DNA of 30,479 nt from Terriglobia bacterium (GCA_046714815.1 JBKKAI010000450.1:1-30479), one strand, 5' to 3'; numbered from the stretch's first letter, positions 1-30,479 are shown. The notes: generated by a model from the sequence alone, not told the origin. Numbers and translations are program-made.

Positions 1-260
1 TCGGCGGCGCGCTCCGGCAGCACGTGGCCCTGCGGGCGGACCGTCAGGTCCACGCCGGGGAAGCCCAGTTCCTTCAGCGTTTTTCCCAGGCGCAGGTAGT
101 CGAGCTCGGCCAGGTGCTTGGAAAAGAAGCACAGCGTGGGCGTCGCCGAATGAGGCGGCGGCGGCGTCCGGGAGCGTACGCTCCGGGTTGCAGGCGCGAG
201 AAGCGGCGAGGCGGCCAGCGCCGCGCCGGCGCGCAGGAAATCGCGGCGGGTCGGCTTCAT
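1..260 (-). CDS. Tat-exported sugar phosphate isomerase/epimerase-like TIM-barrel protein (partial, runs off the window start)
   Basis: Not in the ORF track. Hand translation from ATG at 260 gives [23 protein letters not shown]...LCFFSKHL...[21 protein letters not shown]: twin-arginine motif plus the FSKHL/DLTVR/GHVLPE pattern of xylose-isomerase-like (AP_endonuc_2) proteins. ATGA overlap with the upstream stop at 257-260. Confidence 0.8.
171..193. repeat. REP-like hairpin, copy 1 (minus strand CTGCAACCCGGAGC-GTAC-GCTCC), inside a CDS
   Basis: 23 nt identical to 30451-30473 when read on the minus strand; related to 21942-21963. Confidence 0.75.
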
Positions 261-12457: not shown

Positions 12458-13674
12458 CGCTGTCTGTTCTTGGTCACGAGTTCCCGGAACAACTGCTCGT
12501 AAGCGGAGGTGACCGCCTCCCAATCATACAGCCGGAGCGCGCGTTCGCGGGCGGCCTCGCCCAGGCGCCGGCGCTCGGCGGCGGCATCTTCGCCGGGCCG
12601 CAGCAGGTGGCGCATTTTCCCGGCGAGGTCGCCGGCCGAGTGGGTGAAGGCAATGCCGGCGTCGCCCGCCACTTCCCGGTTTTCCGCTGTGTCGAGGTAG
12701 AGAAAAGGAAGTCCCGCGGCCATGGCCTCCACCAGAGCCGGGTGCGTGCCGCCCACTTCGGTGGCATGGACGTAGGCCCGGGCGTGCGCGCGCAACTGGC
12801 TGTAGCCGGCGCCGTAGATCGCGCCGGGAAAGACGATGCGCGGATCGCGCGTCTCGCGGACGCTGCCGATGTAGCGAGAGGCGTAGGGCGCGTCACCGAC
12901 GATGGCCAGGCGAAGGCCGGCCGCCACGTTTTCGAAGGCCCGCACCACGAGCAGGGCGTTGTTCTCCGGCTCGAGGCGGCTGACGTAGAGCAGGTATTTG
13001 TCCGGCTCCAGGCCCAGCCGCTCGATCGTTTCGGTTCCCGTGTCCGCCGGCGGGCCGGCCCCATAGGGAATGAAGCGGAACTCCTTGCCGAATTTTTCCC
13101 GGTAGTAACGCTGGATATGGAGCGCGTCGGTGACCACGGTTGTGGGCATCCAGGTGGACAGCCATTCCGACAGCCGATAATAGGTCCGGCCAAGAAAATT
13201 CCATTTGCGGCGCAGGCGCTCGAGCCCGTCAACGTTCACTACCGTCGGCGTGCCCACCAGCCGCGGCATCCAGGAAAAGGCGCTGTTGGCCGCGTTGCAG
13301 ATCAGCGCCACCTCCACCGAAGGCATCCGGAACACCAGGTGCAGGACCGAGAGAAACGTGTGGCTGACCGTCTCGAAATACTTGTGGCGGATGGAGGGAA
13401 GAAAAATCAGCCCAACGCCGCGGTGCTCCGGCGTCACGGCCGGCCGGCAGCGGCCAAACCAGCGCTTCCCGCGCTGGCCGGCTGCCGGCCAGCGCGGAGC
13501 GCTGGTTGTGGCCAGAGCTTTCGCTTCGGGCGCCGCCGCGACGCTATGGGGGCGGCCGTAAACCCAGACGCGATGGCCACGGGCGGCCAGGCGCGCCGAC
13601 AATTCTTCGGCAAAGGTTTCAAAGCCGCCGTAAGCGGCGGGCACCCCGCGCGTACCCAGGATGGCGATGGTCAT
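12454..13674 (-). CDS. Glycosyltransferase family 4 (GT-B, DUF1972-like N-terminus)
   Basis: ILGTRGVPAAYGGFETFAEEL, NVDGLE, YVSRLEPENN and EVGGTHPALVEAMA motifs. Confidence 0.9.
   Translation of the reverse strand: MTIAILGTRGVPAAYGGFETFAEELSARLAARGHRVWVYGRPHSVAAAPEAKALATTSAPRWPAAGQRGKRWFGRCRPAVTPEHRGVGLIFLPSIRHKYFETVSHTFLSVLHLVFRMPSVEVALICNAANSAFSWMPRLVGTPTVVNVDGLERLRRKWNFLGRTYYRLSEWLSTWMPTTVVTDALHIQRYYREKFGKEFRFIPYGAGPPADTGTETIERLGLEPDKYLLYVSRLEPENNALLVVRAFENVAAGLRLAIVGDAPYASRYIGSVRETRDPRIVFPGAIYGAGYSQLRAHARAYVHATEVGGTHPALVEAMAAGLPFLYLDTAENREVAGDAGIAFTHSAGDLAGKMRHLLRPGEDAAAERRRLGEAARERALRLYDWEAVTSAYEQLFRELVTKNRQR
13452..13513. repeat. Near-perfect ~30-bp-arm palindrome inside the GT4 CDS
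   Basis: GGCCA-AACCAGCGCTTCCCGCGCTGGCCGGC t GCCGGCCAGCGCGG-AGCGCTGGTT-g-TGGCC; the arms pair apart from two small bulges. Confidence 0.85.
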
Positions 13675-18733: not shown

Positions 18734-21228
18734 AGGATCCTCGGAGAAGCGGCCACCAGCAAATGATTTTCCGCCGGCGCCGGAGCGTGCGCCCGCAGCG
18801 CCTCCCGGTAAGCCTGCTCCAGGCGCTTCAAGACGACATCCCAGTCCCAGCGCTCCTCCGTGGTGCGGCGGGCGCGGCGGGCCAGGGCCTCGGCGCGTTC
18901 GGGGTTTTCCAGCAGTTCAATGATAACAGAGATGAACTGGCGGGCATCGTGCGCCAGCAGCAATTCGCCGCCGTCGTTCACGTCCAGCCCCTCGGCGCCC
19001 AGCGGCGTGGAGATCACCGGAATGCCCGCGGCGAACGCCTCCAGAATCTTCACGCGCACGCCGGAGCCGCTGAAAATCGGGCTGAGGAACAGGGCGTAGC
19101 GCGACAACACCTCGCGGATTTCCGGAACCATCCCCAGCAAACGGACTCCGGGGCGCCGGCACAGGGATTCCACCTCGGGCGTGGGATAGGCGCCCACCAC
19201 CATCAGATCCACCCCCGGCCGCGCCGCGCGCAGCGCCGGCAGCACGTCGTTGACCAGGAACCGAAGGCCGGCCAGGTTCGGCGGATGGCGGAAGTTCCCG
19301 ACAAACAGCAGCGTCTCCGGCTGGCGGCCACGGAACACCGGGACGTAATCGGCGGTGTCCACCGCGGTGCGCAGGGAGCCGCGGATGGGCGGCGCGCCGG
19401 GCCCGAGGAATGACTCGAGCAGGCGCCGCTCTTTTTCGCTGCACGTTTGCACCAGGTCCATGCGGCGCAGCAGGCGCAGCTCATAGCGCAGCGCGCGCAG
19501 CCACTCCACGAACATCTCGAGGAACGTGACCAGCGGCTGCGGCTGCGGCAGGGTCATCGGCTGGGTCAGCGCCTGCACCATGGCGCGGCGTACCGACTGG
19601 AAGTACACGTCGTGCTCGAAAAGAACCGTCGGCGTGTGCCGCCAGCCCCCGGCAAAATGGCCGAGCTGCGTGTATTCCACCTGCACCAGGTCAATCTGGC
19701 GCTCCCAGATCAGGCGGTGGACGCGCCGCTGGAACTCCGGACTCTGGAAGCAGCGCACCGAGTATGGCGTCAGGCCATGAAAATCCCGGTGCGGCGGAAA
19801 ATCGCGCAGCACGCACTCCACCGAGCGCACGTGACGTTCGAGCGCGCGGTTGGTCTCCACTTCTTCCGGGCGATCCACGAAAGCCAGGACGTGGACCTCG
19901 TGGCGGAGCGCCAGTGCCCGCACCGTCTGGTACATGAAGACGCCGCCGCCGTGCGTCGGCGGGTAGAGCGAGTAGGGGGACAGGAACAGGATGCGCAGGG
20001 GCCGCCCGGAATCGGGGTCCGCTGCGGCAGGCCCGGCGGGTAACCCCCCGGGCTCGCCGTCGCGCGCCGCCGCCGCGGGGTGGCCCTCTTCGCGTTTCGC
20101 CGGAAGCAGGAAGCGGTCGCGATAGAACGCCGCGAACGGGCGCCGCAAGGCTTCGGCGTCGTCCACGGCGGCCAGGCTGCGGGCGGTCCAGCGCCGCGCC
20201 AGCGCCCGCCCCCAGCCGCGCAGCGCGCCGAGGTAGCCGGGCAGCGTCGCTTGAGTTGCGCCGGTGGCCAGAGGGGACAGAACAGTGTTGGCGTACAGCA
20301 ACAGAAAATGCTGCGCCAGCCGGCTCCAGCAGTGAATGTTCTTCCACACCATCAGCGTGTGGTTCTTCTTCACGATCGCGTCAATCCGCTCGGGGGAAAA
20401 ACGCTTGCCGATCGTGGCGCGGTGCTCGTGGTGCACCACGGCGCGGGGCTGGTACAGCACCTGCCAGCCGCGCTTCCAGGCGTTGTAGGAAAGGTCCGCA
20501 TCCTCCACGTAGAAAGGATGGAACAGCCTGTCGAATCCGCCGAGCTCGAGGAACTTCGCGCGGTCGTACGCGGTGGAGCCGCCGCCGGCGTAGAAGGTGG
20601 GATAAGGCGCCGACACGTCCTCGATCAGGTGCCCGAAGCGAAAGAAGCCGCCCTCGAAGCGGCCCTCGGTCAGCCCGGTCTCTTCACGGCGCTTCCCCTG
20701 GTCGAGAAAAAATATCTGCGCGCTCACCGCGAACACCCCGGCGTCGGTAAAGCCTTCGAGCAGGCGCTCGAAGGCGTCCGGCTCAACGCGCATGTCGTTG
20801 TTCAGCACCACCACGACGCCGTTGCGCGCCGCGGCGACCCCGGCATTGTTGCCGCCGCCGAAACCGAGGTTGCTCTCCATCCGCAGCAGGCGAACGGAGG
20901 GGAATCGCCCACGCACCATTTCGGCGGTGCCATCGTCGCTGGCGTTGTCCACGACGATCACTTCGTTATGGGGGTGGACGGCGGCGGCCTCGACCACCGA
21001 GGGAAGGAATTTCTCGAGCAGTTCGCGGCCATTCCAACTCGGAATAACCACGCTGAGCGACTCGGGGCGCGTGAAGGCAGGGGGCGGAACGGGCTGCCCC
21101 GATGGGCGGCCGCGGCCCATCACCAGCCAGGCCAGGTCCACCAGCGCCAGGCTTGCTGCGTTCAGCAACAGCAGCGGCGGCAGAAGAAGCACCGCCGCAA
21201 GTGCCTCCAGCAGGCGCAGCAGGATCAC
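18730..21228 (-). CDS. Bifunctional GT2 + GT4 glycosyltransferase with hydrophobic N-terminus
   Basis: GT2 motifs: IPSWNG, VDNASDD, NLGFGGGNN, LNNDM, YVEDADL. Then a Pro/Ala linker and GT4 motifs: ILFLSPY, FVGNFRHPPN, GSGVRVKILEAFAAG. Confidence 0.9.
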   Translation of the reverse strand: MILLRLLEALAAVLLLPPLLLLNAASLALVDLAWLVMGRGRPSGQPVPPPAFTRPESLSVVIPSWNGRELLEKFLPSVVEAAAVHPHNEVIVVDNASDDGTAEMVRGRFPSVRLLRMESNLGFGGGNNAGVAAARNGVVVVLNNDMRVEPDAFERLLEGFTDAGVFAVSAQIFFLDQGKRREETGLTEGRFEGGFFRFGHLIEDVSAPYPTFYAGGGSTAYDRAKFLELGGFDRLFHPFYVEDADLSYNAWKRGWQVLYQPRAVVHHEHRATIGKRFSPERIDAIVKKNHTLMVWKNIHCWSRLAQHFLLLYANTVLSPLATGATQATLPGYLGALRGWGRALARRWTARSLAAVDDAEALRRPFAAFYRDRFLLPAKREEGHPAAAARDGEPGGLPAGPAAADPDSGRPLRILFLSPYSLYPPTHGGGVFMYQTVRALALRHEVHVLAFVDRPEEVETNRALERHVRSVECVLRDFPPHRDFHGLTPYSVRCFQSPEFQRRVHRLIWERQIDLVQVEYTQLGHFAGGWRHTPTVLFEHDVYFQSVRRAMVQALTQPMTLPQPQPLVTFLEMFVEWLRALRYELRLLRRMDLVQTCSEKERRLLESFLGPGAPPIRGSLRTAVDTADYVPVFRGRQPETLLFVGNFRHPPNLAGLRFLVNDVLPALRAARPGVDLMVVGAYPTPEVESLCRRPGVRLLGMVPEIREVLSRYALFLSPIFSGSGVRVKILEAFAAGIPVISTPLGAEGLDVNDGGELLLAHDARQFISVIIELLENPERAEALARRARRTTEERWDWDVVLKRLEQAYREALRAHAPAPAENHLLVAASPRIL

Positions 21229-22613
21229 GAGCCACTCCCGCGGCCGCGGTCCGAGGGCGGCACCGGACTCAGGCGCAGCTTCTTTCCGATGCGATACCAG
21301 CGCGAGCCAAAGATCTCGGCCAGCTCCGCGGCCAGCCGCGCCCGATCGGCATCGAGGCTGAGCGCCCAGGTGGTGCGCTCGTCGAACTCCAGTTGTAGCT
21401 TGAGCGCCCAGACGGTGCGCTCCTCGAACTCCTGCTGTAGCCTGGCCAACGCTTCGCGGGCCGCGCCGACATCACCCTCGAGCGAATGGGCCCAAGCGAC
21501 TTTGTTATCGAGCTCAGCCTGTAGTTCCTGCACGATTCCCGCCAGCCGCTGCCGCTCCTTCTCAATCTCGGTGGCCCATGCGGTGCGCTCCTCGATCTCG
21601 CGCGACCGTTCCGAAACCACCTGGCGGGCGCGATCCAGTTCTGTTTCGACGCCCTTCCCCCAGGCCACCGCCGCCTCGTGGTCGGTCTGCTGCTTTTGAA
21701 TGGTCTGATCGCGGGCCTCGATCTCCGCCTGCTGCTGCTCGGCCCATTGCTTGCGCTCGTCGAGCTCGCGTCGCGTTGTTTCCTGGTAGGCGGCCAGGTC
21801 CTGCTCCACTTTGCGGATGTGCATCTCGCGCTCGCGGAGCAGATTGCCCGCCGCGGGAACAAACACGAACGGCTCGATGACCGGCAGTGCTTGCCCTGAG
21901 GCGATCGCCACCAGGAAATGCGGCTGATCGCCGGCGACACTCGGAGCGAAAGCTCCGGGTTGCCCGGCGGGATACCCGCCGGGGCTGCCGGCGGCCGCGG
22001 CGAACCCGGCGCTTCCAACCGCTCCGCCGCGACACGCGGGATAGAAACTCACCGCGGCGGTATGGTTCTGGCTGAAAATCGCCCGCTCGGGAAAGATCGC
22101 TGCCAGCAGCGCGTCAAATTCTTCCCTGTCGTACTCGCGGGTATGAAACGGGTTGGTGTAGCCGCGTTCTTCCGAGTAGTAGCGCCGGTTGGGCGTGGAA
22201 ACCAGCAAACGCCCCGAGGGAGACAGCACCCGCCGGGCCTCGGTGAGAAATGCCGCCGCCGCGCTCAAATGTTCGATCACTTCGAAGGCCACCACCAGGT
22301 CATACTCGCTGTCGGCGAAGCCGAGTTTGAGGCAGTCGCCTTGCTGGAAGCGCAGGTTCGGAGCGGAATAGTGGGCGCGGGCGTAGGCCAGCGCTTCTTC
22401 GCTCAGATCCACACCGACCACTTCCACTCCCGGTCCGAGGCAGGCGAGTTGCGCCGCGCCATAACCGGAACCGCAGCCGGCGTCGAGAATACGCAGCGGC
22501 CGCCGGCTTCCGGCCAGGCGCGCGGCAAAGGCATAGCGGGCCAGGTGTTCGTTCCACAGGTCCGGTTCGACCCGCCCGGGGATGACTCGCTCGCCTGTAA
22601 ATTCGAAGTTCAA
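21225..22613 (-). CDS. Methyltransferase plus C-terminal coiled coil (WbdD-like cap/chain-length protein)
   Basis: FTGER..P, EHLARY, ILDAGCGSGYG, AFEVIEH, STPN and NPFH motifs, followed by a long heptad region; start codon TTG. Confidence 0.85.
   Translation of the reverse strand: MNFEFTGERVIPGRVEPDLWNEHLARYAFAARLAGSRRPLRILDAGCGSGYGAAQLACLGPGVEVVGVDLSEEALAYARAHYSAPNLRFQQGDCLKLGFADSEYDLVVAFEVIEHLSAAAAFLTEARRVLSPSGRLLVSTPNRRYYSEERGYTNPFHTREYDREEFDALLAAIFPERAIFSQNHTAAVSFYPACRGGAVGSAGFAAAAGSPGGYPAGQPGAFAPSVAGDQPHFLVAIASGQALPVIEPFVFVPAAGNLLREREMHIRKVEQDLAAYQETTRRELDERKQWAEQQQAEIEARDQTIQKQQTDHEAAVAWGKGVETELDRARQVVSERSREIEERTAWATEIEKERQRLAGIVQELQAELDNKVAWAHSLEGDVGAAREALARLQQEFEERTVWALKLQLEFDERTTWALSLDADRARLAAELAEIFGSRWYRIGKKLRLSPVPPSDRGRGSGS
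21942..21983. repeat. Two abutting REP-like hairpins inside the methyltransferase CDS
   Basis: CGGAGC-GAAA-GCTCCGGGTTGC (21942-21963) and CCCGGCGGG-ATA-CCCGCCGGG (21963-21983). Confidence 0.75.
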
Positions 22614-24795: not shown

Positions 24796-24854
24796 GGCTG
24801 CCCCCGTGGCTTTAGGGGGTTGCCGCAGCGTGGCGGGGTAACCCGCCACGTTGC
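24796..24854. repeat. Two adjacent intergenic hairpins, REP-like
   Basis: GCAGCGTGGCGGG-GTAA-CCCGCCACGTTGC (24825-24854) and GGCTGCCCCC...GGGGGTTGCC (24796-24824). Both begin with GCAAC on the minus strand; no U-tract. Confidence 0.55.
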
Positions 24855-30044: not shown

Positions 30045-30072
30045 CCATTTTGTGCCCGCCCCATTTTGTGCC
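30045..30072 (+). promoter_or_regulatory. 12-bp direct repeat just upstream of the MocR start, possible autoregulatory site
   Basis: CCATTTTGTGCC at 30045-30056 and 30061-30072. MocR-family regulators are known to bind short direct repeats; assignment here is inference. Confidence 0.4.
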
Positions 30073-30075
30073 GAG

Positions 30076-30479
30076 ATGAGCGCCCCGATCGCCTCTCTTA
30101 GCGTTGCGGTGGACCACCGCTCCCGGACGCCGCTGTACAAACAGCTCTACCAGGCGCTCCGCGATGCGGTGCTGCAGGGGAGGCTCACGCCGGGCGCGCG
30201 CCTGCCCGCCACGCGGACGCTGGCAACGGACCTGCAGGTCTCCCGCAACACGGTGATGATCGCCTTCGAGCAGCTTCTGGCAGAAGGCTACCTGGAAGGC
30301 AAAGTCGGCGCGGGAACGTACGTGGCGGGCCGCCTGCCGGAAGAGATGCTGCACGCCGGCGGCGTGGCCGGATCGGCGCCGAGAGCGCGCGTCCCGGCCA
30401 AGTTATCGCGGCGGGGCAAGGCGATCCTAAGCGCGCAGGCCGCCGCCTGGCTGCAACCCGGAGCGTACGCTCCGGGTTG
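30076..30479 (+). CDS. MocR/GabR family PLP-dependent GntR regulator (partial, runs off the window end)
   Basis: Not in the ORF track. Hand translation: MSAPIASL...PLYKQLYQALRDAVLQGRLTPGARLPATRTLATDLQVSRNTVMIAFEQLLAEGYLEGKVGAGTYVA. Confidence 0.88.
   Translation, partial: MSAPIASLSVAVDHRSRTPLYKQLYQALRDAVLQGRLTPGARLPATRTLATDLQVSRNTVMIAFEQLLAEGYLEGKVGAGTYVAGRLPEEMLHAGGVAGSAPRARVPAKLSRRGKAILSAQAAAWLQPGAYAPG
30451..30479. repeat. REP-like palindrome, inside the MocR CDS
   Basis: CAACCCGGAGC-GTAC-GCTCCGGGTTG (30454-30479) is a perfect 26-bp palindrome ending at the last base of the window. Confidence 0.8.

Follow-up and report, generated by a model that had tools for sequence, protein, structure and literature searches.

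REP and REPIN elements are reportedly accompanied by a RAYT transposase of the Y1/HUH type (Bertels and Rainey 2011), and Rickettsia palindromic elements (RPEs), reportedly described by Ogata (2000), are the classic case of such repeats inside genes; to our knowledge, no dedicated transposase is known for RPEs. In fungal mitochondria, GC clusters and double-hairpin elements are short GC-rich palindromes that have spread within the genome and lie in frame inside protein genes. Most REPs are intergenic, but intragenic REPs have been documented, and RPE-4 and RPE-6 are CGTC REPs (PMC3733652). Intragenic GTAG REPs of Opitutus terrae occupy about 70 rows of a published list, with 7–8 residues per unit (PMC3733652, Additional file 3).

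Here we describe a palindrome with CCGGAGC arms, found in an acidobacterial MAG, for which no published description was found in the literature. As in REP/REPIN systems with RAYT (Nunvar 2010; Di Nocera 2013, PMC3733652), the repeat is a short, GC-rich, imperfect palindrome with tens to hundreds of dispersed, lineage-specific copies, many of them with a single G.T or A.C mismatch in the stem, and its stem is identical to that of a GTAG-tagged REP lying at a Y1 gene in G011, a genome of the same class. Unlike REPs, it has no GTAG tag, occurs mostly as a singleton and lies within genes in about 80% of cases. No matching RAYT was found in the 71%-complete assembly. Like RPEs, it is a palindromic repeat placed in frame in many unrelated protein genes, contributing a peptide at apparently tolerated positions; RPE-1 measures about 100–150 bp and resides in obligate intracellular bacteria with reduced genomes, whereas the present element measures 20–40 nt and resides in a free-living acidobacterium. 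The two have no sequence relation: the RPE/CGTC families are recognized by a CGTC tag, a stem starting with A/T pairs and a CCA tail (PMC3733652), and here the CGTC tag and the A/T-starting stem are absent, the stem being CCCGGAGC. The Opitutus terrae repeats likewise occur by the dozen in known genes of a free-living, high-G+C host, but there they form a small part of GTAG-tagged families that are very large, lie mainly between genes and are often dimeric, whereas intragenic copies are the majority here. Fungal mitochondrial GC clusters differ in belonging to an organelle, in their AT-rich background and in their unrelated sequences. Bacterial MITEs such as Correia, ERIC and Nezha (PMC10969869) are also non-autonomous and dispersed, have inverted-repeat ends and in some cases lie in frame, but they are longer and have target-site duplications and a parent insertion sequence, neither of which was found for the CCGGAGC element. 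We class the element as a free-living counterpart of the RPEs, one that works like an RPE but lies outside the GTAG and CGTC families, intragenic REPs and RPEs being themselves already known.

Copies, anatomy and distribution of the palindrome

The window, that is, the whole stretch of 30,479 nt that was analysed, is the entire contig C450 of a fragmented MAG (3.85 Mb, 754 contigs, 65% G+C, 71% complete). The source names of the nearest protein homologues place the host in Acidobacteriota. It is a free-living soil or sediment acidobacterium, and it is present in public soil and sediment runs at low depth, as short contigs that are 100% identical. Genes were called with our own codon log-odds model, trained on 873 long ORFs, and the resulting 3,366 genes (89% coding) are predictions, not curated annotation.

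The motif GGAGC-N4-GCTCCGGGTTG occurs in the window at 171–190 (loop GTAC), 21943–21962 (loop GAAA) and 30454–30479, and shuffled windows contained a mean of 0.11 matches, with none of 100 shuffles reaching 4. These are the three hairpins that a sequence-only reading of this DNA had located inside genes; all three are borne out (Table 1), as are the peptides that it had given for them (QPGAFAP, QPGAYAP and ATRSVRSR). Copy 1 follows directly on the Tat signal peptide of a minus-strand gene, copy 2 reads as GQPGAFAPSVAG on the minus strand, and copy 3 lies about 45 residues past the GntR HTH. As for the host genes, the Tat protein, the methyltransferase and the HTH regulator were recovered as proposed, while the aminotransferase part assigned to the third gene lies beyond the contig end. 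The interval 21942–21983, which had been read as one site, does contain the CCGGAGC hairpin but holds two adjacent hairpins, the second from another repeat family. This arrangement is seen again on contig C265. Both hairpins fall in a variable loop of the methyltransferase (about residues 210–232), a region that is about 10 residues shorter in same-family orthologues. The two intergenic hairpins noted earlier near 24800–24854 are also present, both ending in GTTGCC; for the one at 24800–24824 no repeat family was found, and this tail is its sole shared feature.

Table 1. Palindromes of the window and the genes that contain them
Feature	Position	Strand	Remarks
Host gene 1, Tat-exported protein	3–260	-	N-terminal fragment of 86 aa, truncated by contig start; Pfam PF10518 TAT_signal, E 1e-5
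Copy 1 of the CCGGAGC-type palindrome	166–193		Core GGAGC-GTAC-GCTCC at 171–184; 5' arm imperfect; 3' side GGGTTGC; peptide ATRSVRSR
Host gene 2, class I SAM methyltransferase	21225–22613	-	Domain residues 40–142; coiled-coil tail
Copy 2, 35-nt sub-family	21934–21968	+	GCGACAC-CCGGAGC-GAAA-GCTCCGG-GTTGCCCGCC, 2 mismatches
Second hairpin, adjoining copy 2	21963–21983		CCCGGCGGG-ATA-CCCGCCGGG; GGCGGG-N3-5-CCCGCC family
Weak intergenic hairpin	24800–24824	+	CCCCC-N9-GGGGG, then TTGCC
Intergenic hairpin	24825–24854	+	GCAGCGTGGCGGG-GTAA-CCCGCCACGTTGC; GGCGGG-family member, GCARCGT outer arms, one G.T pair
Host gene 3, GntR-family regulator	30052–30477	+	N-terminal 142 aa; HTH residues 28–91; remainder off contig
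Copy 3, perfect 26-nt palindrome	30454–30479		CAACCCGGAGC-GTAC-GCTCCGGGTTG, exactly at contig end; peptide QPGAYAPG

A further palindrome of the window (13452–13513), near-perfect over 62 nt and unrelated in sequence to the CCGGAGC family, lies within a glycosyltransferase gene. It is also dispersed: contigs C505, C370 and C551 carry copies of 88–95% identity, and C345 has a shorter match of 42 nt.

Exact CCGGAGC-N4/5-GCTCCGG was found at 142 loci genome-wide, against 0 for a control with its arms reversed, so the genome-wide count agrees with the earlier proposal of a repeat family and reveals one of high copy number, mostly inside genes. When one mismatch was allowed, the number rose to 277 loci, compared with 11–51 for each of five composition-matched control hairpins, and an nhmmer profile search of the genome returned 146 hits at E ≤ 1e-3, both strands counted. 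Solo arms, that is, CCCGGAGC lacking its partner, numbered 169 and 145 against about 265 expected by composition; since they are not over-represented, the repeated unit is the hairpin and not the word. Copies are also in excess at contig ends, with 12 of the 142 exact copies lying within 50 nt of one (an approximately four-fold enrichment over the 2% expected). Palindromes of this kind probably add to the fragmentation of the assembly, and because they break it, the true copy number is probably higher. Contigs C453, C588, C447 and C152, and the window contig itself (30454–30479), end in or beside these palindromes. No Rfam family matched the window at gathering score.

The invariant part of the element is an 8-bp stem, CCCGGAGC/GCTCCGGG, closed by a 4–5-nt loop of almost any sequence, among which GAAA is commonest, with loops found in both orientations. 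Stems extend over 7–15 bp and the whole element over about 20–40 nt. The outer arms define sub-families: CAAC...GTCG, which bears the GCAAC foot and one G.T or A.C mismatch; CCAC...GCGG with the loop GTAAC; and a perfect 27-nt palindrome, GAAC...GTTC. Among 272 arms, the extensions were most often CAAC (51), CCAC (36), CGAC (27) and CGGC (22), mostly pairing with the opposite arm. The GCAAC foot, which the sequence-only reading had taken for a feature of the family, thus marks a sub-family. GCAAC was also considered as a general hairpin tag of the genome and rejected, its observed/expected ratio being 0.86 outside the CCGGAGC family. The 272 arms carried no conserved unpaired GTAG (GTRG) tag, and GTAGC is enriched solely at other hairpins of the genome. 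Doublets of the REPIN type are rare (a second copy lies less than 150 nt away for only 1 of the 142 exact loci, and 10 pairs occur among the 277), so the copies are mostly singletons. No longer element bounded by CCGGAGC arms was found in a search limited by short contigs.

The 35–40-nt form, GCGACAC-core-GTTGCCCGCC, is present in 17 copies, two of them identical, all in unrelated genes and encoding three different peptides. The occurrence of this sub-family in unrelated genes with three peptides, and the use of all three phases across the family as a whole, show that the repeat exists at the level of DNA and not of protein. The 17 copies are confined to three of the six frame and orientation combinations, which suggests selection on the peptide.

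Among relatives, the 20-nt core CCCGGAGC-N4-GCTCCGGG was counted 66 times here against 0 in all six same-family genomes; four other genomes of the order held 0–1, a search across the entire order bringing in no further ones, and G011 held 7. The orthologous DNA of relatives (324 kb) contained one chance-level near-match to the element. A scan of one genome per species with the footed pattern, from which records of the present genome may be missing, yielded 27 scattered stretches in other species and no second genome with a multi-copy family; 25 of the stretches matched once, and in the other two one match overlapped on both strands. By these comparisons, the family is lineage-specific.

Position within genes and comparison with orthologues

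By the codon-model gene calls, 113 of the 142 exact copies (80%) lie wholly within genes, spread over 105 of them, and 28 are intergenic; in the one-mismatch set, 221 of 277 loci are intragenic, in 195 genes. The intragenic share of the exact copies is slightly below the 89% expected at random placement (p = 0.001), and copies are over-represented in the outermost tenth of genes at either end. The copies occur in all three phases (47/25/41) and in both orientations. Other hairpins of the same genome are distributed differently: the CACAGGCA-N4-TGCCTGTG family is 89% intergenic, and the intragenic share of the stems ACAGGCA, GCGGGCA and GCGGTGG is 7%, 13% and 5%, respectively, two of these three families flanking Y1-transposase (RAYT-like) genes. 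Given that these families are mostly intergenic, the gene caller is not merely swallowing hairpins. Pfam domains were found in 19 of 20 sampled host ORFs, which include SMC, acyl-CoA dehydrogenase, PBP1, sulfatase, TamB, FtsX, histidine kinases and S9 and M14 peptidases. Copies showed no preferred orientation with respect to the mRNA (23 with G.U against 32 with A.C, p = 0.28), which, together with the absence of an Rfam match, lends no support to an RNA-level role.

A second mostly intragenic family, GGCGGG-N3-5-CCCGCC, has 56 copies, 45 of them in genes, with TTA and TAA as recurrent loops. It has the outer arms CCGGCRAS...GCCGG in common with the CCGGAGC family and sometimes adjoins CCGGAGC copies. 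On contig C550 (4540–4720), a small Cys-rich CxxC ORF sits between two CCGGAGC-type hairpins in an intergenic stretch that is otherwise AT-richer, and a near-identical hairpin with the same flanks was seen on C90, where it follows the gene that precedes a putative biotin carboxylase.

Eleven host proteins were compared with orthologues from same-family and same-order genomes. In eight, an insertion of 7–24 codons, unique to this genome, lies exactly at the element: methyltransferase (window site 2; about 10 aa), acyl-CoA dehydrogenase (9 aa, i.e. 27 nt), PBP1 (24 aa), sulfatase (9 aa), peptidase S9 (11 aa), TamB (17 aa), FtsX (7 aa) and histidine kinase (7 aa). In the remaining three (SMC, DPP-IV and the M14 carboxypeptidase), the element falls within hypervariable low-complexity stretches. 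For window sites 1 and 3, the orthologues are just 42–44% identical and the element regions do not align. In acyl-CoA dehydrogenase, the inserted sequence forms a perfect palindrome that none of the nine nearest homologues, with identities reaching 85%, contains. In the predicted structure (pTM 0.86), the inserted residues form a loop between helices 304–336 and 351–360 with pLDDT < 50, so the model would put them at a tolerated position. In TamB (C277), the 51-nt insertion consists of the palindrome and about 15 nt that resemble an imperfect tandem copy of the PSVTP codons just upstream of the element; the extra nucleotides could have arisen by duplication of the adjacent sequence when the element inserted, or the resemblance could be fortuitous.

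Target-site duplications were sought at the eight filled sites, and nothing consistent was found. At two of them, in acyl-CoA dehydrogenase (GAACCC) and peptidase S9 (GCCGGC), a short direct repeat lies beside the element; three other copies of the 27-nt sub-family have no such repeats. No contig bridging an element-free version of a CCGGAGC site was found in the public runs, which offer low depth and short contigs.

The encoded peptides had been suspected of being insertions relative to orthologues, and for window site 2 and seven other host genes this is what the alignments revealed. The wider proposal of the sequence-only reading, that an active or recent palindromic element is adding sequence to proteins in this lineage, also holds in that insertions are present and lineage-specific, lineage specificity being the demonstrated extent of it. 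It is therefore very probable that a dispersed palindromic element has been physically inserted into this genome, including its coding DNA.

Y1 genes, proposed mode of spread and alternatives

Two Y1 genes reside in the genome, both flanked by other hairpin families. On contig C15 (L013, 1349–2044), a REPtron consists of a 212-aa Y1_Tnp-like ORF between three copies on one side and two to three on the other of GCACAGGCA-TTCC-TGCCTGTGC; the GTAG-tagged CACAGGCA hairpins that flank this gene outnumber every other repeat of the genome, at about 166–210 copies, about 90% of them intergenic. A second REPtron-like unit on C707 (L014, 11–654) has a 223-aa weak Y1_Tnp match with two hairpins on each side, GCGGTGG-CTTG-CCACCGC (40 copies, 5% in genes) and CGGCGGGAG-CTTG-CTCCCGCCG; the latter contains GGCGGG and GGAG sub-motifs in common with both intragenic families. 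Searches of the assembly, which is 71% complete, found no Y1/RAYT gene with CCGGAGC hairpins on its flanks and no homologue of the G011-type Y1 enzyme, though it is common in the class.

In G011, the identical stem CCCGGAGC, tagged with GTAG, lies inverted on both sides of a Y1_Tnp gene (E 2.4e-20), as in a classical REPtron. There it stands between two other small hairpins in a composite REP (L017, 1023–1707; also L015, L016 and L018), and the stem also occurs in composite repeats that are intergenic. One composite pair flanks the gene for a Y1 transposase of 148–174 aa, an enzyme with eight paralogues, and another flanks what by eye is an apparent tRNA gene. The 8-bp stem in common with G011 could be a coincidence.

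Taken as a whole, the observations are, on balance, best explained by a GC-rich palindromic mobile repeat of about 20–40 nt that has multiplied in this lineage and inserted across the chromosome, coding DNA included. A Y1/HUH enzyme of the kind known from REP-RAYT and IS200 systems would copy the single-stranded hairpin in trans, leaving no target duplication. Selection would then retain only those insertions that span a multiple of three nucleotides and encode a stop-free peptide, rich in Pro, Gly, Ala, Ser and Arg, within a loop or linker or at an end of the protein. That a Y1/HUH enzyme is the mover is a tentative part of this account, to which we give slightly less than an even chance: it is suggested by a bare hairpin without target duplication, by the G011 stem at a Y1 gene and by the two resident REPtron-like Y1 genes. 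Counting against it are the lack of a matching enzyme in the assembly and the departures of the element from classical REPs in tag, location and doublets.

The failure to find a matching Y1 enzyme in the assembly would also suit a MITE, or the footprint of a transposon, moved by a DDE-type or other non-Y1 transposase and reduced to little more than its terminal inverted repeats, which the two arms would represent in minimal form. Arms of 12–15 bp resemble such repeats, and the GAACCC and GCCGGC direct repeats beside two filled sites could be read in the same way, but these repeats are inconsistent between sites and missing from the three other copies of the 27-nt sub-family. No longer arm-bounded element was found, solo arms are at or below expectation, and known bacterial MITEs are usually at least 50 bp long. 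We regard this origin as improbable. A strongly conserved stem with a loop that is free to vary could instead reflect a signal selected by the host and spread because it is useful rather than selfish, such as the site of a dimeric protein, an RNA pause or stability hairpin or an uptake-type signal. Loops of the GCGAAAGC type give very stable mini-hairpins, and the 28 intergenic copies could serve as terminators. Such a role is nevertheless very unlikely, as the copies are physical insertions rather than motifs accrued by point changes, show no bias of orientation on the mRNA and are wholly absent in relatives; the lack of a solo-arm excess argues against a word of the DUS/USS type, no Rfam family matched, and near-random positions in 105–195 unrelated genes are unexpected for a cell-wide signal.

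A genome of 65% G+C contains many GC-only hairpins, and an assembly of 754 contigs with copies enriched four-fold at contig ends might raise the suspicion of chance palindromes, a protein-level linker motif or an artefact of the fragmented MAG. These explanations were refuted and have next to no probability left: the reversed control gave 0 against 142; all frames and both orientations are used, and intergenic copies exist; and long reading frames stay open across copies in genes with known domains. One contig from an independent public run also reaches and folds back at the copy at 21930–21966.

Implications for protein evolution

Short indels in protein loops are usually ascribed to slippage, whereas here a single DNA element accounts for no fewer than 113 peptide insertions, and probably for about 200, across at least 105–195 genes of one free-living bacterium, including essential-type genes such as SMC, PBP1, TamB and FtsX. 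The genome also offers a natural contrast, with several hairpin families side by side, among which only CCGGAGC and the related GGCGGG populate coding DNA. This contrast makes it possible to test what lets a REP-like element enter and survive in genes, and whether the insertions are neutral. On the practical side, such palindromes break short-read assemblies and can mislead alignment and annotation.

A more far-reaching interpretation, which we consider possible but rather unlikely, is that of a selfish element adapted to the coding DNA of a free-living bacterium. Such an element would be free of stops in all six frames, would encode linker-like peptides, insert near-randomly with respect to genes and perhaps remain active through a trans-acting Y1 enzyme whose own REPs are intergenic, and would have remodelled loops in at least 3–6% of the proteome. 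If this interpretation is true, it would represent an unrecognized source of lineage-specific protein indels outside intracellular bacteria.
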